64,000 nt of DNA, taken from positions 2,777-66,776 of the forward strand of contig VGFC01000002.1 in NCBI GenBank assembly GCA_016869045.1, given 5' to 3'. This document shows, one piece after another, positions 4,683 through 63,182 of this stretch (positions are counted from its first letter, which is position 1; each line of letters begins with the position of its first letter). Both the position numbers and the translations under genes were made by a program. Source of the stretch: Armatimonadota bacterium (lineage in GTDB: Bacteria > Armatimonadota > Zipacnadia > Zipacnadales > VGFC01). The notes beneath the pieces were generated by a model. The model had not been told where the DNA came from, ran no database searches, and saw only the letters and a program-made list of their open reading frames with translations.

Positions 4683-4687
4683 ATGCT

Positions 4688-7482: not shown

Positions 7483-8892
7483 ATGATGGACCGTGGCGAA
7501 GACGTTCGAAGCCGAAGAGGCGCCGGCTCCCCCTCCCCGGGCGACGATGACGTCGTCGAACAGGTAGGAGACATGGGCGATGAGGAGCTGGATCGTCTCT
7601 CTGCGGCTGACTTCGACGAAGGCACGCTTCAGGAGTCGTTGCGCTCCATCCGCCCCGGCGAGATCGTCGAGGGCGTCGTCGTGGAGGTCCGCGACGACGA
7701 ACTCGTGGTCCACGTCGGCGGCAAGTACGAGGGCGTCATCCCCCTGATCGAGTTCCCCAGTACGGCCGAGGTGCCGAAGGAGGGGGAGCACGTCAGTGTG
7801 GCAGTCATCCGCATATCGGAAGATGAGGGCCAGGTCGTCCTCTCCAAGAAGAAGGCCGACTACGAGAAGGTCTGGACCCGGATCATGGAGTCCCTGAACA
7901 GCGGCGAGATCATCACCGCGATGGTCACGGAGCGCGTCAAGGGCGGCCTGCGGGTGGACCTGGGGGTCAGCGGCTTCGTGCCGGCCTCGCAGGTCAGCAC
8001 GCGCAACGTCCGCGACCTCGACCGGTTCGTCGGCCGCTCGCTCCGTCTGCGGGTGATCGAGGCCGACCGGAAGGACAAGAAGGTCATCCTCTCGCACCGA
8101 CAGGTCGTGGAACTCGAGCGCAAGGGCCGACGCGACGAGACGATGGCCCGCCTGCGGGAGGGCATGGTCTGCGAGGGCAAGGTACGCAACATCACCGACT
8201 ACGGGGCCTTCGTGGACTTGGGCGGCGTCGATGGGTTGCTGCACATCTCGGAGATGGGCTGGACCCGCGTCAAGCATCCCTCCGAGGTCCTGAAGGTCGG
8301 CGACACGATTCAGGTGGCAGTCATCGGGATCGACCACGCCAAGGAACGGATCAGCCTCTCCCGCCGGGAGTGCCTGCCCGATCCCTGGAATGAAGCCGGC
8401 AAGCGCCTCAACACCGGCGACGTAGTGAAAGCCCGCATCACCCGGCTCGCCAAGAACGGCGCTTTCGCGCTCATCGAGGACGCGCAGGTCGAGGGCTTCA
8501 TCCCGATCTCCGAGCTGTCCGAGCGGCGGATCGGCGACCCCAGCGAGGTCACCGCCGTCGATCAGGTCGTGGATGTGAAGATCATCAGCCTCCGACCTCA
8601 GGAGCGGCGCATGACCCTGAGCCTGGCCGAAGCGGAGCAGGAGAAAGAGCGCCGGGAGTACCGGGAGTACATGGCAGGCCAGACCCAGGCGCGCGCGACC
8701 CTCGGCGATCAGTTTGGCGAGGAGCTCGCGCGAGTGCAGACGCAGGTCGCGGCCGCTCCCGTCGGACCTTCCGAACCCGAACCGCCGACCGAACCCGAGC
8801 CCGCCGTCGCCGAAGAGCCGGCCGCGCCGGAACCCGCTGCCGAACCTGAGGCCGCGGCGCCCGCTGAGGAGCCGCCCGACGCCTCCGTGTAG
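7483..8892 (+). CDS. rpsA: 30S ribosomal protein S1 (four S1 repeats, acidic Pro/Glu/Ala tail)
   Basis: Four S1 repeats, e.g. EGKVRNITDYGAFVDLGGVDGLLHISE. SD-like AAGGGAG upstream of ATG 7483. Confidence 0.92.
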   Translation: MMDRGEDVRSRRGAGSPSPGDDDVVEQVGDMGDEELDRLSAADFDEGTLQESLRSIRPGEIVEGVVVEVRDDELVVHVGGKYEGVIPLIEFPSTAEVPKEGEHVSVAVIRISEDEGQVVLSKKKADYEKVWTRIMESLNSGEIITAMVTERVKGGLRVDLGVSGFVPASQVSTRNVRDLDRFVGRSLRLRVIEADRKDKKVILSHRQVVELERKGRRDETMARLREGMVCEGKVRNITDYGAFVDLGGVDGLLHISEMGWTRVKHPSEVLKVGDTIQVAVIGIDHAKERISLSRRECLPDPWNEAGKRLNTGDVVKARITRLAKNGAFALIEDAQVEGFIPISELSERRIGDPSEVTAVDQVVDVKIISLRPQERRMTLSLAEAEQEKERREYREYMAGQTQARATLGDQFGEELARVQTQVAAAPVGPSEPEPPTEPEPAVAEEPAAPEPAAEPEAAAPAEEPPDASV

Positions 8893-8942
8893 GGGCGCCA
8901 TTCATGGCGCCCGGTCGTGTAGGGGCGCGATTCATCGCGCCC
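8889..8942 (+). repeat. Two tandem GTAG-type REP palindromes (family A)
   Basis: GTAG-GGGCGCCA TTCA TGGCGCCC (8889-8912) and GTAG-GGGCGCGA TTCA TCGCGCCC (8919-8942). The rpsA TAG stop lies in the first GTAG. Confidence 0.85.
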
Positions 8943-15113: not shown

Positions 15114-15138
15114 GGAGGACAGGCATTCCTGCCTGTCC
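15114..15138 (+). repeat. GGAG-type REP palindrome (family B)
   Basis: GGA-GGACAGGCA TTCC TGCCTGTCC. Other copies at 17357-17381, 18715-18963 (split) and 56400-56424 (reverse). Confidence 0.85.
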
Positions 15139-15212
15139 AAGACTCGGTCTGTGGAACAGAAAACGCGCATTTTGCAGGACGTTTCGGGGCCGACGGCTCG
15201 TACCGCGTGAGT

Positions 15213-17340: not shown

Positions 17341-17356
17341 GAGTACGTACGAACTT

Positions 17357-17381
17357 GGAGGACAGGCCTTCCTGCCTGTCC
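17357..17381 (+). repeat. Family B REP copy
   Basis: GGAGGACAGGCCTTCCTGCCTGTCC, one mismatch to the 15114 copy. Confidence 0.85.
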
Positions 17382-28535: not shown

Positions 28536-28545
28536 TGCTCTGCCG

Positions 28546-28673
28546 TTGCCGTCCACCTGGGAGCGCGGGCTTCCAGCCGGCATGCCGTGCCTTTGACGTC
28601 TGCTGGGAGGGCCGGCGTCTCGCCGGCGTGCCGTCGCCGTCAGCTCCGAACTCTGGACTCTGGACTCCGGACT
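28546..28673 (+). repeat. Composite repeat: two family C REP-like units plus heptamer tract (CTGGACT)x4
   Basis: TGGGAGCGCGGGCTTCCAGCCGGCATGCC and TGGGAGGGCCGGCGTCTCGCCGGCGTGCC, then heptamers at 28646-28673 just before the uvrB ATG. Confidence 0.8.
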
Positions 28674-28679
28674 GCCTTC

Positions 28680-30659
28680 ATGCACCGCTTCGAGGTCATC
28701 TCCGACTACACGCCAAAGGGCGATCAGCCCCAGGCAATACAGGCCCTGGCCGACGGCGTGTTGGCCGGGATGAAGCACCAGACGCTCCTGGGGGCGACCG
28801 GCACGGGCAAGACCTTCACGATCGCGCACGTGGTAGAGCGCGCTCAGCGGCCCACTCTGGTGATCGCCCACAACAAGACCCTGGCCGCTCAGCTCTGCGC
28901 CGAGTTCCGCGAGTTCCTGCCCAGCAGCCGCGTCGAGTATTTCGTCAGCTTCTACGACTACTACCAGCCCGAGGCCTACCTTCCCGAGACCGACACCTAC
29001 ATCGAGAAGGACGCGCAGATCAACGACGAGATCGACCGCCTCCGCCATTCGGCCACCCAGGCTCTGATGGAGCGGCGCGACACGATCGTCGTGGCCTCCG
29101 TGTCGTGCATCTACGGCCTCGGCGCGCCGGACCAGTATGAGGAGATCACTCTTCAGGCCAAGGTGGGGGAGAGCGCCGACCGCGACGAGCTTCTGCGTCA
29201 ACTGGTCCGCATGCAGTTCACGCGCAATGACTACGCGCTGGACCGCGGCCAGTTCCGCGTGCGCGGCGACGTCATCGAGATTCATCCGGTCGATGAGGAC
29301 CTCATCACCCGCATCGAGATGTTCGGCGACGAGGTCGAGCGGATCACGGTCGTGGATCAACTGACCGGCGAAATCCTGGAGGAGAAACAGACCACGGTCG
29401 TCTTTGCGGCGAGCCACTACGTCGCCTCCCACGAGCGCCAGCAGGCCGCCCTGAAGTCCATCGAGGCCGAGCTGGAGGAGCGCCTCGCGCACCTGTACGG
29501 GGAGAACAAGCTGCTGGAGGCCCAGCGCCTGGAGCAGCGCACGAAGTACGACCTGGAGATGATCCGCGAGGTCGGCTACTGCCAGGGAATCGAGAACTAC
29601 TCGCGCCATTTCGACGGCCGCCGCGCCGGCGAGCCGCCGTACACGCTGATCGACTACTTCCCCGCCGACTTCCTGATGGTCATCGACGAGTCGCACCAGA
29701 CGATCCCGCAGCTGCGCGCCATGCTCGAAGGGGACCGCTCGCGCAAGCACAACCTCGTCGAGCACGGCTTCCGTCTACCCTCGGCGTATGACAACCGCCC
29801 GCTGTCGTTCACCGAGTGGGAGCAGCGAATCAACCAGGTCATCTACGTCTCGGCGACTCCCGGCGCCTACGAACTCGCGCACAGCGCGCAGGTCGCCGAG
29901 CAGATCATCCGCCCGACCGGGCTGGTGGACCCCGAGATCGAGGTCCGCCCCACCGAGAACCAGATCGACGATCTCATCGCCGAGATCAAGGAGCGCACCG
30001 CCAGGCACGAGCGAGTCCTCGTCACCACCCTCACCAAGCGCATGGCCGAGGACCTCGCCGAGTACCTCGCCGAGATGGGCATCCGCGTGCACTACCTCCA
30101 CTCCGAGGTCCAGACCTTCGACCGCACCGAGCTGCTGCGTGACCTGCGCCTCGGCGCGTACGATGTGCTCGTCGGCATCAACCTCCTGCGCGAGGGCCTC
30201 GACCTGCCGGAAGTCTCGCTGGTCGCGATCCTCGATGCCGACCGCGAGGGCTTCCTGCGCTCGACGACCTCGCTGATTCAGACCACCGGCCGCGCCGCCC
30301 GCAATGTGAACGGCCGTGTGCTCATGTACGCGGACGAGGTCACGCAGGCGATGCAGGAGACGATGGACGAGACGAACCGCCGCCGCGCGATTCAGGCGGC
30401 GTACAACGAGGAGCACGGCATCGAGCCCGCGACCATCGAGAAGGCGGTTCGCGACACGATCCGTTCCCGGGAGGACACCCAGCGCCGCGCCCGCGCGACC
30501 GTCGAGCTCGCCGCGGTCGAGGACCTCGAGGAACAGGACCTGGAGGCGGTCATCACTTCCCTCGAGACCGAGATGCGCGAGGCCGCCGCGACCCTCGACT
30601 TCGAGCGCGCCGCCGCCCTCCGCGACGAGATCGCCGAACTCAACCGCCTGCGGCGGTAA
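28680..30659 (+). CDS. uvrB: Excinuclease ABC subunit B (659 aa)
   Basis: [65 protein letters not shown]-terminal UVR coil [11 protein letters not shown]. Confidence 0.99.
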
Positions 30660-30795
30660 GGTCTCAGGTCCCAAGTCTCATGTCTCAGGTTCACAGCGCC
30701 CGCACAGGCTTCCGTCCCACGGTTGCCGCCAACCCGAGACCCGAGACCTGAGCCCCGAGACCTGAGACCCGAGACCTGAGACCCGAGACCTGAGA
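30660..30795. repeat. Inverted heptamer tracts, (GGTCTCA)x~5 ... (CCYGAGA)x9
   Basis: Left tract 30660-30694 and right tract 30733-30795 fill most of the uvrB-uvrC gap. Confidence 0.92.
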
Positions 30796-30800
30796 CGCGC

Positions 30801-33712: not shown

Positions 33713-33717
33713 CGGCA

Positions 33718-33853
33718 GGTGATGGGTGCTGGGTGATAGGTGATGGGGACGTCGGCAGAGGCGCGGCTGGCGGTGGTCGTGGCGCAGGCTTCCAGCCTGC
33801 GTCCGTCGCCGTCCACTTCCCACTTCCCACTTCTCACTTCGCGCTCATCACTT
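33718..33853. repeat. Inverted heptamer tracts around a GTGG-type REP between convergent genes
   Basis: (GGTGATG/GGTGCTG)n, then GTGGCGCAGGCTTCCAGCCTGCGT, then (CCACTTC)n. Confidence 0.75.
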
Positions 33854-36800
33854 GCCTTCCCACGCAGCCAACCTCCTTCGGCCCTAACTCCACCTCGATC
33901 ACGGCCTCACCTCGCTCCACCTTCGGCTTCAGCTCCTTCCCGTTCCACAGGTCGAGGTAGCGCGCGCCCTTTTCGTGCTTCACCCGGAGCACCGGCCCGC
34001 GGTACGTGCTGAACCCCACGTTGAGCAACGTCCACACGGTCTCGTCCTTCGCGGAGAACCGGTTCGCGCAGATGAGCGGACTCTCGGTCGGGACGAGCGC
34101 CTCCACATCGTCGGACGTGAATGCGGCGCGATGCTCGTGCAGCAGCGCGAAGGACTTGCGCAAGAACGCCTGCGCGTCCGCGTCGAACCCACTTGGGATG
34201 TCGTTCCCGAGCCACGTGCCCTCGCCGTTGAAGAACGGGTACTTCAGCAGCTCCCAGCCCCCATCGACGAACGGGTTGTAGGAGACGAGCTGGAAGACCT
34301 TGAAGTCCGGGAAGCAGAAGCGGAAGAGCTGGATGCGGTGCGGGGCGAGCGTCGCATCGCCCTGCCACACGGAGTAGCCGAGCGCTCCGTCCTGGTACTG
34401 GCTGTTGACATCGACCGGCACTTCCTCCGTCAGCGTCGCGATGTCGGGCGGCACGGCGGCCCTGATCTTGCGGCCCATCTCCCGCTCGCCCCGTAGCGGT
34501 GGCTGCGGAACGGGGTGCCCGTGGTCCGGGCTGTAGCAGATCTTCCACGCATCGGCGAAGCCGTGCTGGTCGATGTACATCCCATTCGGCTGCAGCTCGC
34601 CCGTCACGCGCTTGTACGTGCCCGCCAGGTAGTCCTGCCAGCCCTCGCAGGCGGGGCACATCATGTGCTCGGTCGGCGCGCCCTCCCACAGCAGCGGCTG
34701 TCCGTCCGGCCGGATGATGTGCCACTGGCCCACATGCTCCCGCCCAAACTCCCCGCGCTCATCCACGAGGTACCCCTCGATGTAGAGCCCCACCCGTGCG
34801 CCGGTCTGCTCGATGCCACGAATGGCTTCCGCGAGCTTCTCCCTCCCGCCGATCTCGTCGTAGTGGCTGTAGTCGCCCACGCGACCGTATGCATCGGATT
34901 GCCCGAAATCGAAGATGTGGAAGTAGTCCACTCGGCCGAAGAACTCGATGTCCTTCTCCAGCACCTCGTTCATGTGGTAGGTCTGCGTCGTAGGGTCGTA
35001 GAGCTGCCCGCGCACGAAGTGCTGGCGGTAGTTGAAGCACTCCTTGAACCACTGCTTCCTCGGGACCGCGGGCTTGTACCAGGTGTGCGCCCACTGCCGG
35101 TAGCGGTTCAGCGCGACCCGCCAGTCGCCGGTGTGTACGCCGATGGCGGTCGGCGCGATCTCGATGGTCTCCCCGGGCCGGTAGTCGCGCGCGAAGTAGT
35201 CGGCGCGGAACATCACGCCGTTCTCGTCCTTCTTCAGCGCGTGGTACTTGGTGATGTCGTTCAGGTCGTGCACCATCAAGTACAGCCCGCCGCCCAGCCG
35301 CGGGCTGAACACGTCGGTGATCTGCAGCGGGTGCCGGCCGCTGTAGGCGTCGGCCATCCAGATTGGCCGGTTGTTGATGATCCCGCCGCGACCGCAGTAC
35401 AGGTACCACGCGTCCTCCGGCTCGCCGAACGCGATGCCGCCCACTTGCGGGAAGACAACGCCCGGCCGGATGACCTCCTGCCCAACGTGCTTGAGATTCA
35501 GCCCCATCTCCAGCTCCGGCCCCGCGCCCAGCCGCATCGTCACTTCGCCCGCCAGCGGCACGCCCTGCTCCGTCGCATCGACGGGGATCGTGACCGCCAC
35601 CGTGCCCTTCCCTCGCTCCTCCTTCACCTCACCCACCTTCACCTGCGTCGAATCCACTTGCTTGTCCCCGATCACCAGCACGAAGATCGGCCCCGCCGCT
35701 ACCGTCATCCTACCTCCACTCAAGCACCGGTTCTCGATCGCCTCCAGCCTCAACCCTTTGCCCACACTGAACTCCGCCCTCAGATACGCATTGCTGAGAA
35801 CCAGCCCCTTGCCGTCCACCTGGGAGCGCGGGCTTCCAGCCGGCATGCCGTCGCCGTTGACTTCGAGCCTCGCCTCCGTCTCCCGGATCTCTCTCTCCTT
35901 CGCCTCCTCCGGCAACACGCTCACCGCCTTCGTCCGTACCAAGGCCTCCCCCTGATACGCCGTCGCCGCCACGAGCGCAATCGTCGCATCCCTCATCGCC
36001 GACCGCAGCCGTATCCGCCGGACCGCCTGCTCCCTCAACCCGCTCAGCACGTAGGCATCGATCCCTGCCGAGACCTCGTACACGCCATCGCTCGCCCGCG
36101 CGGGGAAGTGCCAGTCCGTCACTCCGTCCTCGTAGTCCACTGCGACGCGGAACCGCTCCGGCTGGCGGAAGCTGCCCAGGGGTCGGGCGCCCAGCCCCCC
36201 CGACCAGTCCTCCGACGGCAGTCGCGCTGCGATCAGGAGGTACAGCTCGTCCGCGCTCCTCCCGATCGGCACCCCGTATGGCTCAAGGGAGTTACGCGGA
36301 ACCGCCGCGACGTTCGGCTGCTCTTCGCGCAGCTCGAATGGGATGCCCTCGACGGTGATTCGCGTCTCCCCGAACCAGTCCGTTGCGCCCAGCCTTCGGG
36401 CGAGGTCCTTCCCGTTCGCATTGCACGCCGGCCGCAGGTTGACCGGCGCAAAGCGCGCCTCCGGCGCCCGCAGCCCCTCCCAACCCTTGCCGAAGGCGAT
36501 CATCTCCCCGACGGGCAGACGCGGCCGTCGCGTCGATAGCTCGATGTAGTCGATCTCCGCCCACGCCCCCTGTCTCTCATCTGCCGTCAACGCCGAACCC
36601 CGAACCCCAAACCCCGAACCCGCCTGCAACTGCACCGCGATCTCCTTCACAGGGAACAGCGGCTTCTCGACCGCGACCGTCTCGGTGTGCCAGCGCCCGT
36701 CGGAGCGGACCTGCGTCCCGGGGAAGAGGGTGGCGGACTGCTGAGGCTGCCCTCCGGTCTCGCTGCCGACCCACACGAAGTAGTCGCCCCACTGGGTCGC

Positions 36801-37556
36801 CCGCTCGGCCCGGTAGCGGATGGTGAGGTAGGCCGCGCCGCTGAGGTCCACCGGCTCGTCGAACTGCGCCGACCACTTCATCCCCGCATTCGGTTGCCGG
36901 ACACTCATGACGAGCCGCCCGTCCGCCTGCTCGATGGCGTGGGTGCCGTCCGGCGCCGGGTTGGCCAGCCACGTTGGGTGGGCCTCGAACTTCAGACCAC
37001 CGTCGAACTCCTCCCGCCATGCGAAGGGCTTCGGCGCGTCCTTTGGCAAGCGGATCGCCCCCTCCGGCGCGTCATCCACGACGCGCAGGTAGTCGAACGA
37101 GAGTCTCGCGGGCGCTTGCTCTCCCGCCTGCACCTCCACCGCGAGCGTCTGCAGGCGCCCGCGTCGCCCCTGCGCGAACAGGTCCACGGCCACCTCATGC
37201 CACTGCCCGTCCAGCGGGAAGTCCCCGGCGGCAACGATGGTCCCGTCGTTCTGCCCCGAGATGCCCCACAGCACGTACGGCCCGCCGGTCCGAATGCCCT
37301 CAGCGCGACAACGAACCAGCAGGTAGCCCTCAACCTCCGCGCTCAGGCTCTCCACCGGGCAGGTCCACTTCATCCCTCGCCCGGGCTCCGCTACGCTGAA
37401 CGTGAGCACACTCCCCTCCGCCTCAACCTTGGCCTCCGCCGTGGGGTTGCTGACCCACGCCGGCTGCGCGGTCCAGCCCGCCGCCTCTTCGCACTCGATC
37501 GGCCACGGCGCCTGCGCGAATGTCCTTCCCATCAGACACAGCAGCAGTAGGCCCAT
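33834..37556 (-). CDS. Large secreted putative glycoside hydrolase (1240 aa): two N-terminal CBM-like beta-sandwiches and a C-terminal TIM-barrel-like catalytic region
   Basis: Signal MGLLLLCLMGRTFA. Modules with DGQWHEV and DGRWHTE. Catalytic-like motifs DYFHIFDFG, GLYIEGYL, HMMC, NGMYIDQHG, LTEE. Confidence 0.6.
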   Translation of the reverse strand: MGLLLLCLMGRTFAQAPWPIECEEAAGWTAQPAWVSNPTAEAKVEAEGSVLTFSVAEPGRGMKWTCPVESLSAEVEGYLLVRCRAEGIRTGGPYVLWGISGQNDGTIVAAGDFPLDGQWHEVAVDLFAQGRRGRLQTLAVEVQAGEQAPARLSFDYLRVVDDAPEGAIRLPKDAPKPFAWREEFDGGLKFEAHPTWLANPAPDGTHAIEQADGRLVMSVRQPNAGMKWSAQFDEPVDLSGAAYLTIRYRAERATQWGDYFVWVGSETGGQPQQSATLFPGTQVRSDGRWHTETVAVEKPLFPVKEIAVQLQAGSGFGVRGSALTADERQGAWAEIDYIELSTRRPRLPVGEMIAFGKGWEGLRAPEARFAPVNLRPACNANGKDLARRLGATDWFGETRITVEGIPFELREEQPNVAAVPRNSLEPYGVPIGRSADELYLLIAARLPSEDWSGGLGARPLGSFRQPERFRVAVDYEDGVTDWHFPARASDGVYEVSAGIDAYVLSGLREQAVRRIRLRSAMRDATIALVAATAYQGEALVRTKAVSVLPEEAKEREIRETEARLEVNGDGMPAGSPRSQVDGKGLVLSNAYLRAEFSVGKGLRLEAIENRCLSGGRMTVAAGPIFVLVIGDKQVDSTQVKVGEVKEERGKGTVAVTIPVDATEQGVPLAGEVTMRLGAGPELEMGLNLKHVGQEVIRPGVVFPQVGGIAFGEPEDAWYLYCGRGGIINNRPIWMADAYSGRHPLQITDVFSPRLGGGLYLMVHDLNDITKYHALKKDENGVMFRADYFARDYRPGETIEIAPTAIGVHTGDWRVALNRYRQWAHTWYKPAVPRKQWFKECFNYRQHFVRGQLYDPTTQTYHMNEVLEKDIEFFGRVDYFHIFDFGQSDAYGRVGDYSHYDEIGGREKLAEAIRGIEQTGARVGLYIEGYLVDERGEFGREHVGQWHIIRPDGQPLLWEGAPTEHMMCPACEGWQDYLAGTYKRVTGELQPNGMYIDQHGFADAWKICYSPDHGHPVPQPPLRGEREMGRKIRAAVPPDIATLTEEVPVDVNSQYQDGALGYSVWQGDATLAPHRIQLFRFCFPDFKVFQLVSYNPFVDGGWELLKYPFFNGEGTWLGNDIPSGFDADAQAFLRKSFALLHEHRAAFTSDDVEALVPTESPLICANRFSAKDETVWTLLNVGFSTYRGPVLRVKHEKGARYLDLWNGKELKPKVERGEAVIEVELGPKEVGCVGRQVMSAK
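35809..35851 (+). repeat. Family C repeat inside a CDS
   Basis: 43 bp identical to intergenic 28546-28588. Confidence 0.9.
36589..36621 (+). repeat. Heptamer tract (CCCGAAC-type) inside a CDS
   Basis: Same unit as 4652-4680; reads GSGFGVRGSA in the 1240-aa protein. Confidence 0.85.
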
Positions 37557-39728: not shown

Positions 39729-40424
39729 TCAGTACCTCTCCATCGCGGTGCACCAGTAGACGCGCTTGGACCAGCCGCGCGCCTTGCTGTGGATGAGGCT
39801 GCGCACTTCCTCGCCGTCGTAGTGGATGGGGCGGCCGGCGACGCCGAGTTCGCGGGCGAAACCCTTGGCACGGATGACGCCGCGGCCGTGGAAGTGGATG
39901 GTCACCTGCTTCTGCTGGCTACGGCGGCGCGGGTCGAGCACCGTGAGGACCACCGTTGCATGCGAGGGCCGGGCACGATCGGACGACTCACTCGCGATCA
40001 CGAGCGGGCGACCGCCCTCCGGGAGGTCGGCAGCACCCCCGCCACCGAGTTCCACATGGGGGTAAGTGCCCGGCTTGGCGAAGATGGGAACGGCGCTCTG
40101 GTCGGAGACGCGAATGCCGAACTTGCGGAACATGGCAAGGGCCGGTTGGTCGCGACCGCCTCGCACCGGCAGCGGGGGCCCGTCGCCGGCCTCACCGGTC
40201 ATCGGGACGTTCGTGAGGCCCTGGCGCAGCATGACCTCCTTCAGCGATCCTCCACACAGGTCGTGGAAGAAGGCCGTCGCCTCGTTGTTGCCGATGACGG
40301 TCTCGGCCGCATCGATCAAGATCTCCTGGCCGTCGTCGGTATGTGTGCGGTACCTGGGGCGCTTGCCCCCGCCGCCACTACCGAGGTTGTTCAGCCAGTC
40401 GCGGGCACGTTGGAACCAACCCAC
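39729..40424 (-). CDS. Hypothetical protein (about 231 aa)
   Basis: Open frame with GGAGG upstream of GTG 40424; the ORF-track extension to 40541 only translates a heptamer tract. No family recognised. Confidence 0.55.
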   Translation of the reverse strand: MGWFQRARDWLNNLGSGGGGKRPRYRTHTDDGQEILIDAAETVIGNNEATAFFHDLCGGSLKEVMLRQGLTNVPMTGEAGDGPPLPVRGGRDQPALAMFRKFGIRVSDQSAVPIFAKPGTYPHVELGGGGAADLPEGGRPLVIASESSDRARPSHATVVLTVLDPRRRSQQKQVTIHFHGRGVIRAKGFARELGVAGRPIHYDGEEVRSLIHSKARGWSKRVYWCTAMERY

Positions 40425-40447
40425 TGTACGCCAGGCCTCCGGAAGGC

Positions 40448-40503
40448 GGTTTCGAGTTTCGGGTTTCGAGTTCCGGGTCTCACGTCTCGGGTCTCGCGTC
40501 TCG
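40448..40503. repeat. Heptamer tract, 8 units of (G/A/C)GT(T/C)TCG
   Basis: ggtttcg agtttcg ggtttcg agttccg ggtctca cgtctcg ggtctcg cgtctcg. Confidence 0.9.
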
Positions 40504-40540
40504 GCAGTTTGCAGGAAAGACACAGGTAGCCTGACCGGCA

Positions 40541-43474
40541 TCAGTCGCGGGCGAGATGCCGGACCAAGACCATCTCATTGACGATTGCACGGTAGACCTC
40601 CTCCAGGTCCCTCCGCCTCACGCGAACACCCAGTGCTTCGCACACCGCTAGATCGAAGGCCACCCGGCTCCCGTCTGGCTGAATGGGCTTTGGCCCAACG
40701 GCCACGCCCTGCAACGGCAGCCGTCGTGCCCCAGTTCGATCGAGCTTCGGTTCCTCCCAGAACTCCCGGTATCGGGCCTCGAAGTTCTGGTCAAGCTGGT
40801 CCCTCAGGGCCGGGAACTCCGACCGAGCGAACTGATTGAAGACATCGCATAGGGCCGGAACGTCCCTGTCTGTCGGGCACAGCGGCATGGCCTCCAGGTC
40901 GTAGAAGCGGATGTTGACATAGCGCCCTCCGCTCTCCTCCTTGAGGAGGAAGAAGTGCGAAAGGAACAGCGCGGAGTTCATCAGAACGCACACCGCCCGG
41001 GCTCGGTCGGGGTCCGGTTCGACCACAACGTTCAGCACGTTAGAGGGGCATATCTGCGTCTCGCTGTAGAAGGCGAAAAGCATCGTCTGCGGGGAGAAGG
41101 GGTTGATCCGGTGGGTGCACACAAGCTGCGTCCCTATGCGCCCAAGACTCGCCTCAACGTCTCGCCAGAAGCGCCTCCAGTTGAAGCCCTCCCCCTCCTG
41201 GAACCCGCTCGCGCGGATCACCTTCCCCAGATTTGGGTAAGGCGCGCACGCTACGTAGTCGTGTGCCCCAGTAATGTCGAAGCTCGACAGCCCGATGCCC
41301 GTCCTAAGAGATGGCACGAAGGCATCGGCCTCAAGTGCGTAATGCGTCGCTCGTCCCCCTCGTGCCCGGCGCTCATGCAGCATCCTGGACGCTGCTTTTA
41401 TGACACCTGGCTCCTCTCCAATCAGGCGCAGGAATGCCTCCTCAACGCGCGCTGGATTTGTGCCTCTGGTCACGAACATGAACTGCGACACACCTCGCGG
41501 CACCGGGCGATAGCCCTCCCGGAAGTACCTTGCGGGGAACTTCCCTAGCCTGCCCGCGAAGCGGTCGGCGAACCCCATGAGCGAGCGCCGTGCGCTGAGG
41601 CTAGTGCCACTACAGAACCACATTAGGTTGTCCATTCGCTCGTGAATGTCAGCCAGCGGCACTGCCCAAGTGTCGGCCAGTTCGCTTTCGGAGTCGCGCA
41701 CCTCTGACCTTACGGCCTCGCCGACCACTCGCACGTCCTCCTCATCGAGGTCTTTTAGGTCCTTCTTGACCAAGCAGAATTTAACTTGGTGGTCGGCCTC
41801 TGGCGCCCGCCTCTCCGCAACAAGCAGAACATCGCGGTACTCGGCCCATTCGGAGAACCCATAGTTGGCCGTTGCCTTCAGTACCGAGACTGGCGTCCAC
41901 TCTCTGAACAGTAGTTCGCGCACCTTCCGACTCTCCCGGCCCCGGAGGACGTTGATGGGAAGGACCGCCCCAACCCTGCCACCGTCCCGCAGCACGGTCT
42001 TGGTGAGCGCAAGGAAGTGCCCCCAGAGACCGACCTCACCTCCGCACTCTGGAGCAAACCGGCCCATATTGACGTACCGGCCAATGCCCCTTTCCACCTT
42101 CGTGAAGGGGGGGTTCATCAGTACGCGGTCAACCCATTGCAACTTGATCTCTAGGTCCTCCCCCCGACTGGTTCTCCCCCTCCGAGTGCCGCGGTAGATC
42201 GGCAGAAGCGCTACGTTCGGCCCGTCTGAATACGGCACGCCATACTCCAGATTGAGGCTATCCCCCTGGATGATCTGAGTATGCCCTATCGTTGTTCCCG
42301 GGTCCATCCCCGCGAGGTTGGCAGACGCGAGGTGTACGCTGAACGGCATGATGTCGGCCCCGAAGATCTCCCTCTCACAGAACCGTGTGTGCGGGTTCCC
42401 GGCAATCCCCTCTGCCTTGCACAACTCCAACTTGCGCCTGTAAGCTGCGACCAGAATCGTGCCAGAGCCACATGCAGGATCAAACACAGTGTCCGCGCTC
42501 GACTCGATGGAGAGGTGCGCCAGGAGTGCCGCGGCCAAGGGTCGAGTGTAGAACGCGGCCAGCATCTTCCGAATGTGGGTCGGCATCAGCTCGTGGAATA
42601 TTCGACCAGGGAGTTCGTACCGGACCTTCTCGATGCTAAGTCCCCAGATGAGGTTGAAGGTGTCGGCGACGTAGCTGTCCGGAATGCACCCCAAGACATC
42701 TACGCCGTAGATCATGCGGTAGTTCTCGTCCACGATCGCGCGGAAGGCTTGCCTGAGCAACGACGCGCTCGGCGGGCCGGTCAGGAAATCAAACATGCGC
42801 GGTCTCGCGGCCCACAGGAGGCGGAAGAACATCACTTGGCTCAGGAAAATGTACGATGCCAGGAAGCGACCGACTGCCTCGATGTTCCGCTGAGGGAGGT
42901 TGCCCAGCCCCGTCAGCAGGTCTTCGTCCGTCACGATCCGCAGCAATGTTGCCTCATCGAGAGGCAACTGCCTCATCATCTCCTCCACGTGAACTTGGAG
43001 CAAGGAGACGACCAGGTCCATCGGGTAGTGCGAGACTTGGCGTTGCTCAAGCGCGGGAATGACCTCGTCGATCAGGAAGCCGAGGACCCCCGCGAATGGC
43101 CGATCGCGCAGTTCCTCCTGCATCGGCCCAGCGTCGACCAGCACCGAAGGCTTCAGCCGATCTAGGGCCGAGACCACCATGCTCTCTTCTGGGATAGTGT
43201 TCCGGATTGCGGTTGGGAAGAGGGCTAGCATCCCGAAATCTATGCCGCTCTCCCCCTTGTGGCGGAGGTACTGCAGGAAGGCACCCTTCAGCGTCCTAGC
43301 GTCCTCCCCGATCTTGACGGAGAGGAGCCACCGATGGCCGCAGAGATCGAACACGATGTCGGGCTCCGAGTTGAAGCGAACCTCCTGCACCCCCGAACCT
43401 CCAGCCTGCCTGATCGCCTGCATCAGCGGGTCATAGAGGGTGCGCTCCGTGATGTGACCGAGAAGCGACGGCAT
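40541..43474 (-). CDS. N6-adenine DNA methyltransferase with probable N-terminal nuclease domain (type IIG-like restriction-modification, 977 aa)
   Basis: Motif I VFDPACGSGTIL, motif IV LMNPPF, FYTRPL, FGADI. N-terminal E..PD...SVK. Long C-terminal TRD-like region. Visibly lower GC than its neighbours. Confidence 0.8.
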   Translation of the reverse strand: MPSLLGHITERTLYDPLMQAIRQAGGSGVQEVRFNSEPDIVFDLCGHRWLLSVKIGEDARTLKGAFLQYLRHKGESGIDFGMLALFPTAIRNTIPEESMVVSALDRLKPSVLVDAGPMQEELRDRPFAGVLGFLIDEVIPALEQRQVSHYPMDLVVSLLQVHVEEMMRQLPLDEATLLRIVTDEDLLTGLGNLPQRNIEAVGRFLASYIFLSQVMFFRLLWAARPRMFDFLTGPPSASLLRQAFRAIVDENYRMIYGVDVLGCIPDSYVADTFNLIWGLSIEKVRYELPGRIFHELMPTHIRKMLAAFYTRPLAAALLAHLSIESSADTVFDPACGSGTILVAAYRRKLELCKAEGIAGNPHTRFCEREIFGADIMPFSVHLASANLAGMDPGTTIGHTQIIQGDSLNLEYGVPYSDGPNVALLPIYRGTRRGRTSRGEDLEIKLQWVDRVLMNPPFTKVERGIGRYVNMGRFAPECGGEVGLWGHFLALTKTVLRDGGRVGAVLPINVLRGRESRKVRELLFREWTPVSVLKATANYGFSEWAEYRDVLLVAERRAPEADHQVKFCLVKKDLKDLDEEDVRVVGEAVRSEVRDSESELADTWAVPLADIHERMDNLMWFCSGTSLSARRSLMGFADRFAGRLGKFPARYFREGYRPVPRGVSQFMFVTRGTNPARVEEAFLRLIGEEPGVIKAASRMLHERRARGGRATHYALEADAFVPSLRTGIGLSSFDITGAHDYVACAPYPNLGKVIRASGFQEGEGFNWRRFWRDVEASLGRIGTQLVCTHRINPFSPQTMLFAFYSETQICPSNVLNVVVEPDPDRARAVCVLMNSALFLSHFFLLKEESGGRYVNIRFYDLEAMPLCPTDRDVPALCDVFNQFARSEFPALRDQLDQNFEARYREFWEEPKLDRTGARRLPLQGVAVGPKPIQPDGSRVAFDLAVCEALGVRVRRRDLEEVYRAIVNEMVLVRHLARD

Positions 43475-43514: not shown

Positions 43515-43556
43515 CGTCTCAGGTCTCAGGTCTGAAGTCTGAGGTCTGGGGTCGGG
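43515..43556. repeat. Heptamer tract (GGTCTSA), 6 units, overlapping the dehydrogenase 3' end
   Basis: cgtctca ggtctca ggtctga agtctga ggtctgg ggtcggg. Confidence 0.85.
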
Positions 43557-44667: not shown

Positions 44668-44680
44668 GGAGCCCTCCAAG

Positions 44681-44766
44681 GCAGGCCGGCGAGACGCCGG
44701 CGGTCCCGGCAGACGTCAAAGGCAACGGCTGCCACCGCACGCGCGCAAGGGTGCGCGCGGTCCCAG
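44681..44766 (-). repeat. Two family C REP-like units
   Basis: 44681-44729 matches 28583-28632 in reverse with few mismatches; 44737-44765 matches 58581-58609. Confidence 0.8.
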
Positions 44767-44772
44767 GAACGG

Positions 44773-46605
44773 CTAACGCTCCAGTTCCGCCCAGGCCGCC
44801 CGTGGGTACCAGCACAGGATGCCGTAGGCCTCGGTGCCGACAAGGACTCCGGCGTGGCCGAAGAAGAGCGCGGCACGCGCGGAGTAGACGGGCGGCAAGA
44901 GATGGGAGCCTTCGCCCGGCGCCAGGAACAGCGTCGGGTAGACGTTGCGCGCGAGGGGCGTTGTGAAGAGATCGACCCCCTGAGCGCCGGTGACGACGAA
45001 CTCGGGGTTGCCGCCTGGAGTCCAGTCGGTGACCGAGAGAGCATTCGGTCGCAGCAGGCTGGCCTCTTGCAGGGCGGAGTCCCCGGTCGGGCCGCTGGTG
45101 TACAGCTCGATCTGGGCGGCCTTGGTGAACACGGGCGGGCCGTCCCGCCGGCCCTGGTTCTCCAGGTAGATGATCGGCTGGGCGGGGGTGAGCGGCTCGC
45201 CCGGAATCTCTCGTGCGCCGATGAAGAAGTCGGTGTCACCGTCGAGGTCATAGTCGCAGGTTGAGACCGTGGTGAGCCCGGTCGCCGCCAGCGGTCGCCC
45301 GCCAGCGGTGAGGCGCTGAGCGCCGAGGAGACCGGCCCGCGTGCGCGGGGCCAGGACGACCTCGCCGCTGCCGCCCCCAATTGCCAGCATGTCCACGGCA
45401 CTGTCGGTGTGAAGGGCGAGGGCCGGCTGGGCGTAGCCGCCGGGACACCGGTAGAGGCCCTCCGGGGATCGCACGAGCATCTCGGCTCCGAAGACCCCCT
45501 GCTTGGCGCGACCCTCGCCCAGATAGACTCTGAGCAGACCGTCCTCGCCCCCGACGAGAAGGTCCTCGCGCCCGTCGCCGTCCCAATCACCCAGGTCCGC
45601 CGCCGCGCAGCGACCGGCGTCGATGGGCGCGTCGGCCTGCTGCAGGTAAGGTCGCACGGCGAGCTGCGCCGCGTCCGTGCGCTCCAGCAAGACCACGCGG
45701 CCCGACCGCGTACCCAGCAGCAAGTCGGCGTCGCCGTCGCGGTCCCAGTCAACGCATCTGGGTGCCAGGTCCTGCAAGGGCGCGCCATCCGGACCGATGA
45801 TCCGCCCGTCTTCGCCGGACAGAGGCGCCGGAGCTTCGAAGGTTGGCGGGTCCGCACCGGCCTTCCCGAGCCGCGCAACGGCCCGGCCATCACCCGTGCC
45901 GACCACCAGATCGAGCACTCCGTCGCCATCGAGGTCGGCGATGTCTGCGCGCGGATGAGGCAGATCGCCGGCGGGCACGATCTCCTGGGGCGGGGCGAGG
46001 AGGGCGTCGCCCTTCCGCCGCGAGAGCAGCACGCGGCCGTCGGGGCACGAGATGTAGAGGTCGGGTCGGTCGCCCGGGCGAGGGCTGACGGCGGAGATGC
46101 CACAGTCCTCGGTGGGGAGCAGGGGCTGGGCTCCCTCGGCCAGCAACTCGACCCCGGGCGCGAAGCTCGCGTGGCCGTCGATCGTGCGGGTCTCGTAGAG
46201 GTAGACCTTCGTGCCGGCGGCGAGTAGCAGGTCCAGGTCGCCGTCGGCGTCCCAATCGCACGCGGCGGGACATGCCGGCGCGCGAACGGGGCTGAAGGCG
46301 AAGGGCTGTGTCTCCGCGCTGCCGAGGCCGGAGGGCTCCTCGAAGATGCCGTCGGGACGCTGGCGAAAGAAGAGCAGGTCCCCGTAACCCGAGCCGACCA
46401 TCAGGTCCATGCGGCCGTCGCCGTCCCAATCAACCGGCGAGAGCTGGACCCAGTCGCCGCCAGTCAGCGGCCCGACGGCCTGCCGGAAGACGATTCCCCG
46501 CAGCCACGCGAAGGGGCCCGTCTTCGTGATCTCAGTGAAGCGCTGAGCGTGGGACGGCTGAGCGAGGAGGACGACAAGCGCAAGGAGATTAGGGACAGGC
46601 CCCAA
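44773..46605 (-). CDS. Secreted FG-GAP/VCBS-repeat beta-propeller protein (about 610 aa)
   Basis: At least six D(W/L/Y)DxDGxxDL-type repeats. Signal-like LLALVVLLAQPSHA. Only nearby in-frame start is TTG 46605, inside a palindrome. Confidence 0.8.
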   Translation of the reverse strand: MGPVPNLLALVVLLAQPSHAQRFTEITKTGPFAWLRGIVFRQAVGPLTGGDWVQLSPVDWDGDGRMDLMVGSGYGDLLFFRQRPDGIFEEPSGLGSAETQPFAFSPVRAPACPAACDWDADGDLDLLLAAGTKVYLYETRTIDGHASFAPGVELLAEGAQPLLPTEDCGISAVSPRPGDRPDLYISCPDGRVLLSRRKGDALLAPPQEIVPAGDLPHPRADIADLDGDGVLDLVVGTGDGRAVARLGKAGADPPTFEAPAPLSGEDGRIIGPDGAPLQDLAPRCVDWDRDGDADLLLGTRSGRVVLLERTDAAQLAVRPYLQQADAPIDAGRCAAADLGDWDGDGREDLLVGGEDGLLRVYLGEGRAKQGVFGAEMLVRSPEGLYRCPGGYAQPALALHTDSAVDMLAIGGGSGEVVLAPRTRAGLLGAQRLTAGGRPLAATGLTTVSTCDYDLDGDTDFFIGAREIPGEPLTPAQPIIYLENQGRRDGPPVFTKAAQIELYTSGPTGDSALQEASLLRPNALSVTDWTPGGNPEFVVTGAQGVDLFTTPLARNVYPTLFLAPGEGSHLLPPVYSARAALFFGHAGVLVGTEAYGILCWYPRAAWAELER

Positions 46606-46645
46606 TTTCCGACATGACGTCCGTCGGAAATTGGGGCCTGTCCCT
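46591..46645. repeat. Perfect 23-bp inverted repeat (family D)
   Basis: AGGGACAGGCCCCAATTTCCGAC, 9 nt, GTCGGAAATTGGGGCCTGTCCCT. Confidence 0.92.
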
Positions 46646-46666
46646 GATTTCGCCCTTGACCTACGT

Positions 46667-55563: not shown

Positions 55564-55686
55564 CCTCTCCACCTTGACGCAAGGAGTAACGTGCAGCACA
55601 ACAGGCCGGCGCCCGGTGCGCTGCGTCACTAGGTTAGACGCAGGAAGGCGGGGAAAGGTTACGCGGAGGCGCCGGGCACGGAGACC

Positions 55687-55779
55687 AATCGGGGACACGA
55701 TCCCAGTCGGCGCAGCGGCAAATCGGGGACACGATCCCAATTCGATACGACCGAATTGGGTCATGTCCCCGATTTGCCG
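55687..55779. repeat. Family D palindromic repeat with a duplicated left arm
   Basis: AATCGGGGACACGATCCCA twice (55687, 55721); CGGCAAATCGGGGACACGATCCCAATTCG pairs with CGAATTGGGTCATGTCCCCGATTTGCCG. Confidence 0.85.
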
Positions 55780-55785
55780 TCGGGG

Positions 55786-56361
55786 CTACTCGGTCACGCG
55801 GTAGTCGGGCGTTTCGGCCATTGCCCGCGTCGGGATGGTGCGCGTGTCGTTGGTGATGAGGAACTGGTCCGCGCGGGCGCCGTCCTCACGGTTCTGGATC
55901 TTCACGCTGTGCACGCCCGCGGTCAGCGCGTACGGCTGCGGCGCCTTGCGCCACTTCCAGGTCTTGAAGGTCCCGTCGCCCCCGACGACTTGCGCGGGCT
56001 TGTCGTCCACTACCAGGAAGAAGGAGTTGCCGCAGGCGTCGTACCACCACGTGCGGACCCAGACCGTGTAGTTGCCCTGCTCGGGGACCCTCACCTTGAA
56101 GTAGACGGACCCGCCGTCGCCCTGCACGCCGGAGTTCTCGCTCGTGGCGTGGGGGCGCTTCAGCGGGTACTCCGTGTACTTCCCATTCGAAGCAGTGGTG
56201 TCTCCGGCCTTGACGGCCGTGGACGGCTTGATCGCGTTGTAGTGCTCGGTCTCGATCACGATGTTGTAGCGCTGTGCGGCGAACACGACCGCCGCGAGGG
56301 TGCCCACCAGCGCGCAGATCAGCAGGACCGTCGCACCAATCCGTACTCGTCCGTTCGTCAT
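55786..56361 (-). CDS. Small secreted CBM6/35-like beta-sandwich protein (191 aa)
   Basis: Signal peptide. IETEHY, GNYTVWVR, NSFFLVVD, LTAGVHSVKIQNREDGARADQFLIT. Confidence 0.7.
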   Translation of the reverse strand: MTNGRVRIGATVLLICALVGTLAAVVFAAQRYNIVIETEHYNAIKPSTAVKAGDTTASNGKYTEYPLKRPHATSENSGVQGDGGSVYFKVRVPEQGNYTVWVRTWWYDACGNSFFLVVDDKPAQVVGGDGTFKTWKWRKAPQPYALTAGVHSVKIQNREDGARADQFLITNDTRTIPTRAMAETPDYRVTE

Positions 56362-56366: not shown

Positions 56367-57809
56367 TCATCCTCCGTTCGGAGTATCAGCCCCGAACTCG
56401 GACAGGCAGGAATGCCTGTCCTCCAAGTCTCGGGGCCGGCTTGTCTCCCCGCCGCCTACCGGCGCCTTGGCGAGCTCCTCGACCACGCTCACCAGCGCCA
56501 GCAGCAAGATCAGGGTAAGGCTCAACCCTCGCACGAGAACGCTGCTGAACAGCATGGCCAGAAACACGCCCAACATGCTCCCGGCGAGGCCCGCGCTCAA
56601 GGCGCGGAGGTACTCGGTCGGTCCCTTCGTGCTCTGAACGACTGCCGTGCGGTAGCCGGCATACAGCAACGCCGCCAGCGCGATCAGCCCGCACAGCCCC
56701 ATCGAGCCGGCGATCACCAGCCACCCGCAGTTCGTGTCCGGCTCGATCTTCTCGAAGTTGGGCAGCATCCCGTAGTTCTGCCCGATGTGCAACTGGTAGC
56801 CGCCCGTTCCTACCCCAAGGACGGGGTTCGCCCGCACCATGTTCAGCGCGGGCTGCCACTCGACCCACCTCTTCTTGACCTCCGTGGTCGTCGGAAGTTC
56901 CCCGCCCCGGAAGCTCTCGTCCGTGATTGCCGTCTCATCCCGCACGCCCTCCTCGTACCAGTCCATCAACTCGACCACGTCTGCCTCATGGTTCCGAGGA
57001 AGCGCCCACGGGCCCAGGGCAGTGAAGGCGACCACCGCCGCCGCGACGATCAGCGCCGTCCGCACGCTGCGGCGCAAGCTGAGGGCGATGAGGATCGCCG
57101 CGAGCGCCCAGAAGTGCCAGCCGGAGAGCATCGTCAGCATCCCCAAGGCCACCATCGTCAGCAGAGCGGGCCTCACCCATCCCGAGCCGCGCAGTCCGAG
57201 ACTGAACAGCACCGGCAGCACGAGCAGCAAGTAGTTGCAGTAGATGCTCCGGCTGCTCTTGCCCGCGAGGTGGAGCGTGTGGCCCAGCGGAGTCTTCGAG
57301 ATCACCTCGCCAAGGCCGAACGTCGAGCTGACCCGCCGGAAGGTCTCGCCCGGGTCGGCCGGGTCGGCCCAGAGGATGTACTGAGCCAGCGCGACCAGGA
57401 CCATCAGCGCGGTGAGGACCCCCAGCAGCCCCACGACCCACTTCACCCGCGTCTCATCGGTGATCGCGTTCAGGAACAGCAGGTAGGCGCAGACGAAGTA
57501 GAGGACATACTGCGCGACATCGACGATGCCCGACTTCAGGGCCTCCGGGGAGTCGGCGCGGCCGACCGCGACGATGGCCACCGCCACGAGAACGCCTGCC
57601 GCCAGGGGCGGCCACTTCACGCGCCGCCACGCACCCGTCCCCAGCGCCCACAAGGCCCACACGCCGAATAGCAGGGCGGCAAACACGTCGGCGCCCGAGA
57701 CGAACGGACCGTCCTTCAGGTCCTTCGCCAGCGCGGCCTGGGTTTGGGCCAGCACGATGAGGAGCAACACACCCCATAGTAGCCAGCCGGGGGACTTCGG
57801 CTGAGTCAT
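56367..57809 (-). CDS. O-antigen ligase / O-oligosaccharyltransferase-like (Wzy_C) membrane protein
   Basis: Multiple TM helices; RWVEWQPALNMVRANPVLGVGTGGY periplasmic motif. Confidence 0.82.
   Translation of the reverse strand: MTQPKSPGWLLWGVLLLIVLAQTQAALAKDLKDGPFVSGADVFAALLFGVWALWALGTGAWRRVKWPPLAAGVLVAVAIVAVGRADSPEALKSGIVDVAQYVLYFVCAYLLFLNAITDETRVKWVVGLLGVLTALMVLVALAQYILWADPADPGETFRRVSSTFGLGEVISKTPLGHTLHLAGKSSRSIYCNYLLLVLPVLFSLGLRGSGWVRPALLTMVALGMLTMLSGWHFWALAAILIALSLRRSVRTALIVAAAVVAFTALGPWALPRNHEADVVELMDWYEEGVRDETAITDESFRGGELPTTTEVKKRWVEWQPALNMVRANPVLGVGTGGYQLHIGQNYGMLPNFEKIEPDTNCGWLVIAGSMGLCGLIALAALLYAGYRTAVVQSTKGPTEYLRALSAGLAGSMLGVFLAMLFSSVLVRGLSLTLILLLALVSVVEELAKAPVGGGETSRPRDLEDRHSCLSEFGADTPNGG
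56400..56424 (-). repeat. Family B REP inside the 3' end of the O-antigen-ligase-like CDS
   Basis: Reverse complement of GGAGGACAGGCATTCCTGCCTGTCC; encodes EDRHSCLS. Confidence 0.85.
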
Positions 57810-63162: not shown

Positions 63163-63182
63163 CTGCCTTGTCGTGGGTGGAA

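Follow-up and report, generated by a model that had tools for sequence, protein, structure and literature searches.

How does an enzyme gene come to contain pieces of the repeats that lie between genes? We considered this question for a stretch of 64,000 nt from an Armatimonadota bacterium (contig VGFC01000002.1; "the window" is this whole stretch), in which the gene for a 1240-aa protein holds two segments that resemble intergenic repeats. A first-pass annotation, made from the letters alone, had proposed that intergenic repeats were inserted in frame as peptide. That interpretation is supported by the multi-copy nature of both sequences, by gaps in orthologues at both sites, and by the loop and linker positions of the segments in the protein. 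We consider it highly probable that two modules of the genome's intergenic repeat mosaic were copied into this DUF6259 / GH36-like glycosidase gene and left it intact. One resembles the hairpin units of repetitive extragenic palindromes (REPs), and the other is an array of heptamers.

A homologue search yielded 103 homologues, mostly full length, and 92 full-length sequences were used for insert counts. The proposal would be in doubt if orthologues from genomes without the repeats carried the same residues. Both segments are absent in 90 of the 92, and residues at the two positions occur only in the window's protein and in P0002, which comes from a genome with the same repeat types. In the closest orthologue, P0001 (86% identity), a codon alignment leaves a gap of exactly 14 codons at each site. 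This places the inserts at 35811-35852 and 36579-36620, 42 bp each, and revises two earlier figures: the insert of roughly 13 residues, and a 36-bp indel unit (core plus one repeat), which is ruled out by the alignment. The direct repeat behind that unit is where it was said to be, with GCCGTC at 35811-35816 and 35847-35852 around a 30-bp core. As judged from the alignments, the inserts are derived relative to the orthologues. A coding copy as the source of the intergenic one is ruled out by the orthologue gaps and the copy number.

The gene itself is constrained. Identity between the window and P0001 is 0.89, 0.93 and 0.71 at codon positions one, two and three, and therefore the gene is under purifying selection and is no pseudogene. 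Third-position identity is 0.62 between the window and P0002, and first and second positions range from 0.81 to 0.93 over the two comparisons. Given this divergence in a constrained gene, a repeat copy that is 100% identical to another must be recent or homogenised.

Insert 1 is such a copy. Its coding strand is antisense to the element's CTGGGAG strand. The window contains the 41-mer GCCGTCCACCTGGGAGCGCGGGCTTCCAGCCGGCATGCCGT at two positions only, 28548 and 35811, and none is expected from 100 dinucleotide-preserving shuffles. The exact intergenic match reported in the first pass holds over 43 bp (28546-28588 = 35809-35851), and an alignment of 46 nt has one mismatch (repeat family D5). Only five of seven stem pairs form in the window's insert 1. 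GCCGTC also flanks most intergenic copies, often doubled as GCCGTYGCCGT, and is thus punctuation of the element or mosaic and not a demonstrated target-site duplication. Terminal inverted repeats are absent from the 42-bp unit, unlike in miniature inverted-repeat transposable elements, which are defined by terminal inverted repeats with target-site duplication.

Insert 2 contains a heptamer tract that Tandem Repeats Finder (TRF) places at 36589-36621 (AACCCCG, period 7, 4.7 copies, 88% matches), read as GSGFGVRGSA as the annotation had it. Its head-to-tail 7-nt units make it a simple heptanucleotide repeat. The tract is 80% complementary over 40 nt to an intergenic array at 4588-4627 (repeat pair I7). 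All six frames of the first element and five of the six of the second are free of stops. With nearly all frames open, length is the main filter on which copies a gene can take up.

The host protein is probably secreted. At its N terminus are two beta-sandwich modules resembling carbohydrate-binding modules (CBMs), followed by a middle domain; its C-terminal part, the DUF6259 region, has a (beta/alpha)8 glycosidase fold like that of GH36. DUF6259 (aa 803-1016, E 1.5e-19) is the only Pfam label of that domain, and the protein has no NCBIfam match. Searching the PDB by sequence with the family profile returned nothing, and fold comparison was used instead. In Foldseek searches with AlphaFold2 models, the N-terminal part resembles tandem CBMs, and the C-terminal 540 residues (mean predicted local distance difference test score, pLDDT, 94.1) match the GH36-like alpha-galactosaminidase 9awt_A (TMq 0.70) and alpha-galactosidases. 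This fold makes the earlier label "enzyme gene" reasonable, though Pfam says DUF6259 only. No public RNA run contains the gene.

We placed the inserts, as the first pass had suggested, in an AlphaFold2 model of aa 180-700 (pLDDT 90.8). Residues 134-147 of the model, flanked by strands at 123-133 and 152-162, correspond to insert 2, which forms a low-pLDDT loop in the second CBM-like beta-sandwich. Insert 1 lies in a linker of about 40 residues ahead of the next domain, part of it with pLDDT below 50. Lineage-specific indels are seen in this linker in four other orthologues, and in P0007, P0044 and P0092 they are unrelated inserts. The model pairs RSQVD of insert 1 with GLVLS as a hairpin, as a native RLEVNG-type strand does in orthologues; that the repeat-derived strand takes the native one's place is a prediction only. 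About 25 other insert positions are found across the DUF6259 orthologue family. Some of these inserts are REP-like and lineage-specific as well, in P0059, P0050, P0053 and P0052 (for example GQAFQPVQDG..., RVAQPPSAVL, TSPKRKRG...PSLALR). P0059 (L154 6001-9657) contains an in-frame, GTAG-tagged GACAGGC-TTTCCA-GCCCGTC unit followed by a second hairpin, GACGGCCC-AGGA-GGGCCGTC, and the two translate as GQAFQPVQDGPGGPSD.

Six lake-water metagenome runs contain the stretch, four of which were used for depth ratios. Summed contig depth is 29-38x gene depth over insert 1 and 10-13x over insert 2. The ratios stay constant across gene depths between 5x and 36x, and most copies therefore reside in the same genome as the gene. 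Near-identical 40-44-nt copies of insert 2, with 1-3 mismatches, lie on other contigs of the same depth. In all six runs, contigs enter insert 1 by 28-30 nt from unique gene sequence on both sides at gene depth, a 3.2-kb contig crosses insert 2 without any difference, and no contig joins the flanks minus the inserts, i.e., no empty allele is seen. The same runs contain no copy-number variants of the tract, although contigs can hide rare ones. A minor strain, at about one quarter to one half of the major strain's depth, is present in runs X2-X5 and can be compared over window positions 35675-35997. It differs from the major strain at 8 positions in 35705-35754 and at 14 in 35915-35967 but is identical over the 160 nt between them (35755-35914), insert 1 included. 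The depths of the two strains add up in the insert-1 junction contigs. Divergent and identical blocks alternate, forming a recombination mosaic. Hence more than one clone carries insert 1, and recombination takes place in this part of the gene.

Table 1. Positions of the host gene, its inserts and the intergenic repeats of the window
Feature	Position	Strand	Description
Host gene	33834-37556	minus	1240-aa protein (open reading frame list)
Insert 1	35811-35852	minus	42-bp short variant of REP-like hairpin module; aa 569-582, 14 residues
Insert 2	36579-36620	minus	42 bp: heptamer array (GGTTCGG-type, 4.7 units), then GTTGACGGCAGAT; aa 313-326, reads GSGFGVRGSALTAD
Intergenic copy A	28543-28588	+	short variant identical to insert 1; directly past stop of Invasin_D3/Big_1-like gene, upstream of uvrB
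Intergenic copy B	28589-28640	+	tandem, direct orientation; other subfamily CTGGGAGGGCCGGCGTCTCGCCGGC, perfect 7-bp stem, end GCCGTCGCCGTC
Heptamer array	28644-28676	+	ACTCTGG-type, directly after copies A and B
Mosaic downstream of host gene	33713-33845	+	(GGTGATG)n, GTGG-tagged CGCAGGC-TTCCA-GCCTGCG hairpin, GCCGTCGCCGTC, (CCACTTC)n; directly downstream (D8, TRF)
Subfamily-B module, inverted	44680-44733	minus	just upstream of isocitrate/isopropylmalate dehydrogenase gene; 85% complementary to 28579-28632 (I1)
Inverted heptamer-array pair	4589-4682	+	(GGGTTCG)n / (ACCCCGA)n, insert-2 unit type; long intergenic hairpin (I7, TRF)
Further REP-like loci	8886-8942; 15114-15141, 17353-17381, 56397-56428; 46585-46651, 55686-55793, 63181-63257

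Outside the gene, the repeats form a mosaic. Three loci of the window share its architecture (28536-28680, 33713-33845 and 4583-4690; features in Table 1). Copy B is 65% identical to copy A (D5) and closely resembles the insert of P0002, and an intergenic copy in the related contig L122 is probably orthologous to copy A. The hairpin copy at 33782 has a perfect 7-bp stem and a GTGG tag. Between an S49 peptidase gene and polA, 4583-4690 folds at -63.3 kcal/mol (z = -4.4). Inverted heptamer-array pairs around a central segment recur at 30659-30796 and 33713-33845; the unit differs per locus and the period is always 7. Besides the insert-2 tract, TRF finds 11 further period-7 arrays in the window, and units are more alike within one array than between arrays.

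A metagenome scan for the window's core variant gave 34 loci, mostly from one set of lake samples. The full unit in these related contigs is GCCGTTGCCGTCCAC-CTGGGAGCGCGGGCTTCCAGCCGGC-TGGCGCGCGGTGGCGCCGTTGCCGT, of which the window's 42-bp form is a short variant; the short variant with a following heptamer array is also seen in L138 and L149. Units are arranged in direct tandem clusters, mixed with units of other stems and loops, punctuated by GCCGTYGCCGT and ending in heptamer arrays. One contig, L153, has an 88-bp segment with the hairpin unit tandemly duplicated (11391-11570), the first copy inside the 3' end of a 589-aa open reading frame (ORF), and in L142 (about 700-860) a unit of about 44 bp, CACTGGGAGCGCAGTTCACATAGGTTCCAAACCGTCAGGTCTT, occurs at least three times upstream of the core. 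In one metagenome contig, the hairpin core is joined directly to an AACCCCG array. Since hairpin units adjoin heptamer arrays both in the window and in related contigs, they are two module types of one intergenic mosaic. The annotation's "two different families in one gene" is accurate as to two module types, but these are neighbours in one mosaic and not separate families.

Of 35 copies, 17 lie within 150 nt of a stop codon, and clusters often begin a few bases past a stop. The units are thus dispersed, present in high copy number and mostly intergenic near gene 3' ends, as REPs are. A long coding-like frame runs through at most one of 33 distinct copies of the window's core variant in related contigs, and that one is probably spurious. 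Orientation relative to the upstream gene, a bias in which could point to a role at the RNA level, was 12 sense to 6 antisense and not significant. Searched at gathering thresholds, Rfam yields a single tRNA in the window, and the repeats match no family. The window also contains at least three other REP-like families, all intergenic: tandem TGTAGGGGCGCCATTCATGGCGCCC, GGAGGACAGGCATTCCTGCCTGTCC, and palindromic AATCGGGGACACGATCCC / TAGGGACAGGCCCCAATTTCC pairs. The tag beside the stem is GGAG in the hairpin element, GTGG at 33782, and GTAG in other REPs (window 8886; L001).

Heptamer arrays also touch other genes of the window. The isocitrate/isopropylmalate dehydrogenase gene overlaps at its 3' end with a GTCTGAG-type array at 43516-43553, from which its final 11 codons and stop (RPQTSDFRPET*) are read; this is a second repeat-encoded protein sequence in the window. 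Another array, at 40448-40504, lies between the stop of a methylase gene and the probable true start of the downstream gene; the former (40541-43474, minus) encodes a 977-aa protein with a weak N6 DNA methylase domain, and the latter (39729-40541, minus) is a 270-aa ORF with no Pfam match. At the beginning of the window, a plus-strand ORF (1016-2500) overlaps a minus-strand one (2-1600); both are long and have coding-like GC3. A PfkB domain covers only aa 206-470 of the former, and thus its annotated start is probably too far upstream. Just downstream of it is one tRNA gene (2595-2680, minus).

The only other carrier of inserts at the two sites bears on their history. The contig of P0002 (76% identity) is syntenic with the window (DUF6259, HMGL-like, UvrC, UvrB, Big_1), and both inserts of P0002 are repeat-derived but of different variants. 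At site 1 it carries a unit of another subfamily at its full length of 72 bp (CGCCGGC-GTCCC-GCCGGC), in the same orientation and partly in another frame (TPALPGDV). At site 2 it has 36 bp, (GGTGAYG)4 plus an ACGGC-rich tail, resembling the array at 33718-33747 downstream of the window's gene. The tree by overall identity is ((window, P0001), P0002). However, in aa 537-645 (about 35620-35950) window-P0001 identity falls to 0.63-0.73 and window-P0002 identity is 0.68-0.80, a reversal of the gene-wide order that suggests past recombination in the linker region. Together with the strain recombination seen there, this local closeness makes shared ancestry of the insert-bearing segment plausible.

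One history, to which we give slightly less than an even chance, has each site hit a single time, before the lineages of the window, P0001 and P0002 diverged. The inserts would later have been overwritten by gene conversion or re-insertion from repeat variants now present in the genome, the heptamers by slippage homogenisation, and P0001 would have lost both by precise deletion between flanking RACGGC repeats or acquired an empty allele through recombination. Among the 92 sequences, site-2 inserts exist only in the window and P0002, both of which also have site-1 inserts; with some 25 other positions available in the family, a double coincidence at the same two sites is unlikely. The site-1 inserts agree in orientation and in 5' GGCGACGGC and 3' GCGCTCCCAGG...GAC landmarks. 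Over aa 567-645, identity of the window to P0002 (0.68-0.80) equals or exceeds that to P0001 (0.63-0.73), and the 160-nt tract shared by the co-occurring strains sits between highly divergent patches, as expected of a recombining region. However, P0001 would need two precise losses, each restoring exactly the ancestral length. The lengths (42 vs 72 bp; 42 vs 36 bp) and subfamilies of the inserts differ, and there is no discordance around site 2. Independent hits on hot spots, either because few positions are tolerant or because RGC GGN, resembling RACGGC, attracts modules, are possible but rather doubtful. They would explain why insert 1 is 100% identical to a paralogous copy when window-P0002 synonymous sites are near saturation, and why subfamily, length and part of the reading frame are unlike in the two genomes. 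The unrelated inserts of P0007, P0044 and P0092 in the site-1 linker point the same way. But site 2 has no inserts in any other lineage, and the empty site of P0001, TCCGCT, matches GCCGTY only weakly.

On the main account, the modules copied would be one REP-like hairpin unit and one heptamer tandem array with a GACGGC junction. They would have landed where extra residues are tolerated, in a surface loop of the second CBM-like beta-sandwich and in the variable linker before the catalytic region. Since 42 bp is a multiple of three, the frame is open and the positions are tolerant, the gene stays intact with two extra segments of 14 residues. Rather than new functions under selection, these segments are most likely passengers, neutral or almost so, that purifying selection did not remove. 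Copying would run from intergenic to coding sequence and most likely act at the GCCGTY / RACGGC motifs that bound every module. These boundaries, and a site-1 target ending in AACGGC-like codons, favour a motif-guided process. It could be hairpin-directed single-strand transposition, as for REPs and their paired form, REPINs (REP doublets forming hairpins), which are moved by an enzyme of the RAYT type (REP-associated tyrosine transposase). Alternatively, it could be microhomology-guided templated repair or gene conversion from another copy.

Several observations weigh against this account. The 64-kb window contains no transposase or RAYT gene, and none of its approximately 30 proteins has a Y1_Tnp domain. 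Of the claim that selfish repeats create new protein sequence, repeat-derived protein stands, while active mobility is a supposition. The modules are in direct tandem and not in inverted REPIN doublets. Insert 1 is predicted to fold no more stably than shuffled sequence (z +0.4 to +0.6) and its stem is degenerate; an enzyme that recognises hairpins may not act on it. Random insertion followed by selection does not predict different variants at exactly the same two sites in P0002. Lastly, the neutrality of the inserts is an assumption.

Other origins of the segments account for less of the evidence. Insert 2 is a tandem array, such arrays grow by slippage, and units are more alike within an array than across arrays, so that the segment could have expanded in place by strand slippage from a short intragenic seed. 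We find this improbable, as no seed exists in any of the 90 empty orthologues and the non-repetitive GTTGACGGCAGAT tail is typical of a module junction. Furthermore, copies of 40-44 nt with 1-3 mismatches lie on other same-depth contigs, and the 80% likeness to 4588-4627 includes a common GGGTTCGGCGTT end. Mis-joining of repeats during assembly is a negligible concern. De Bruijn contigs do break within the repeat, and no single short contig spans insert 1. However, both of its junctions are seen at gene depth, 28-30 nt into the element, in six runs; the 3.2-kb contig is unbroken through insert 2; the flanks are never joined without an insert; the frame is intact; and P0002, an independent assembly, has repeats at both sites as well.

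The inserts could also be useful, as flexible loops that alter binding, as a regulatory RNA or DNA structure, or as an on/off switch, because gain or loss of one 7-bp unit shifts the frame. Heptamer tracts are able to drive phase variation in other bacteria. PMC4692102 attributes phase variation to repeat units of 1-5 nt. Insert 1 is common to two diverged co-occurring strains, and both sites are filled in P0002. Nevertheless, usefulness seems to us very improbable. Of 92 orthologues, 90 lack the inserts, and between the window and P0002 there is no sequence conservation in them. At 4.7 units and 88% matches the array is both short and imperfect, and it shows no copy-number variants in the six metagenome runs, within the limit that contigs hide rare ones. 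No stable fold is predicted either: a special RNA or DNA fold of the insert was ruled out at the z of +0.4 to +0.6 given above, and intergenic modules have z of -0.2 to -0.3.

The hairpin module reaches far beyond this genome. We searched species-representative genome contigs with the degenerate core CTGGGAG-N-GC-N-GGC-N-TC-NN-GCCGGC, and more than 117 stretches matched. Among the matches listed (loci L003-L119, for example L012, L029, L052, L059, L069, L108 and L111), the 25-nt core CTGGGAGCGCCGGC-N5-GCCGGC is near-identical across distant phyla, with hosts in Verrucomicrobia, Acidobacteria (Thermoanaerobaculia), Planctomycetes and several Proteobacteria. Such cross-phylum conservation is uncommon for REPs. 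Nearly all of these matches have the canonical CGCCGGC-N5-GCCGGC hairpin, often as inverted doublets 40-60 bp apart. With CGCCGGC-N5-GCCGGCG as a 6-7-bp stem and 5-nt loop, in at least 150 copies, the core fits the short GC-rich palindrome of a REP. A long coding-like frame passes through 13 of 194 copies among the matches listed. Pfam analysis of nine of these found eight real genes, with domains on either side of or around the element: MnmA (2 genomes), MetH, a radical-SAM CofH/MqnC-like protein (2 genomes), alanyl-tRNA synthetase, a TIR-AAA-TPR protein, and Mfd, which holds two tandem units. The phenomenon does occur in this lineage, as the annotation held, but it is not special to it, given that the same core is in frame in housekeeping genes of other phyla and that intragenic REPs are published (PMC3733652). 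Literature text searches gave no relevant match for the core motif, nor did the supplements of PMC3733652 contain anything relevant for typical repeat peptides. A 56-aa concatenated repeat-peptide query against a database of 5.8 billion proteins gave 1078 word candidates, 0 of them at E <= 10.

Intragenic REPs and Rickettsia palindromic elements (RPEs) have already been published, and the present case is a further example. REPs are short GC-rich stem-loops, mostly intergenic near gene 3' ends, with a minority in ORFs adding approximately 10-30 residues (PMC3733652). Di Nocera, De Gregorio & Rocco (2013) described GTAG/CGTC-tagged REPs in many species, some wholly inside ORFs, with intragenic maxima in Opitutus terrae (Verrucomicrobia) and Rickettsia conorii; their catalogue includes two inserts in one ORF as well as DNA-repair and tRNA-synthetase genes (PMC3733652). 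The in-frame cores in Mfd, alanyl-tRNA synthetase, MnmA and MetH of Verrucomicrobia and others are of this kind. However, the tag by the stem here is GGAG (GTGG at 33782) instead of GTAG, with CGTC 10 nt upstream, and GGAG is missing from the degenerate GTAG variants listed in that paper. Direct tandem clusters, common here, are rated rare there, and GCCGTY hexamer punctuation, heptamer-array flanks and an in-frame heptamer module are not described in it. The window's copy also differs in being a truncated 42-bp variant with a degenerate stem.

RPEs (Ogata et al. 2000, 2002) are in-frame repeats in unrelated functional Rickettsia genes, as outlined in PMC10969869. They are alike in adding peptide segments predicted to be compatible with the fold, and unlike in being about 100-150 bp long, having their own conserved peptide and occurring in Rickettsia only, compared with the 42-bp REP-like unit and heptamer array here. 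The inserts are not RPEs: they are 42 bp, come from an uncultured lake bacterium whose nearest named relatives are Armatimonadetes MAGs, and have no sequence relation, so that the likeness, drawn on in the first pass, is an analogy. REPIN/RAYT systems and bacterial interspersed mosaic elements (PMC3116915, PMC2817692) share multi-copy REP hairpins and mosaic clusters of REP subtypes, and the core is found in other phyla in inverted doublets with a spacing of 40-60 bp, a REPIN-like arrangement. A REPIN is, however, a mobile unit of two inverted REPs and is described as extragenic, whereas the window and related contigs have single or direct tandem units and there is no RAYT in the 64-kb window. 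Short tandemly repeated repetitive (STRR) sequences of cyanobacteria are intergenic heptanucleotide direct repeats. Intergenic heptamers elsewhere include the TAACTGA repeats of Beggiatoaceae (PMC4679880) and the G-rich heptamers of Xanthomonas and Nostoc (PMC4692102). Period-7 arrays of few units, abundant intergenically and with a unit that varies by locus, are common to all of these. Here, in contrast, the arrays often form inverted pairs around a REP-like hairpin, one array is copied in frame, and another ends the dehydrogenase gene.

A bolder idea, which we think unlikely, is a single modular system whose cassettes, the hairpin units and heptamer arrays, are delimited by GCCGTY/RACGGC. 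Movement or exchange of the cassettes would be directed by motifs and would repeatedly re-target the same sites. The agent may be a single-strand transposase or recombinase, or targeted gene conversion. If true, re-targeting would explain different cassettes at the same two codons in sister lineages. The 25-nt core, near-identical in Verrucomicrobia, Acidobacteria, Planctomycetes, Proteobacteria and the window's lineage, would in that case be the sign of a mobile system not yet described, common to many lineages and regularly adding peptide segments to housekeeping proteins.

Taken together, the orthologue, read-depth and structural evidence makes this a clean case of short intergenic repeats that turned into protein sequence with the gene unbroken. 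An uncultured lake lineage, heptamer arrays and a probably secreted glycosidase are thereby added to the known range of the phenomenon. Annotators should note that odd low-complexity loops, such as GQAFQPV, in proteins from high-GC genomes of the PVC-like (Planctomycetes-Verrucomicrobia-Chlamydiae) or Armatimonadota-like kind may be repeat-derived. Finally, variants at the same sites in sister lineages, along with GCCGTY punctuation, offer a handle on how REPs without a known transposase move.

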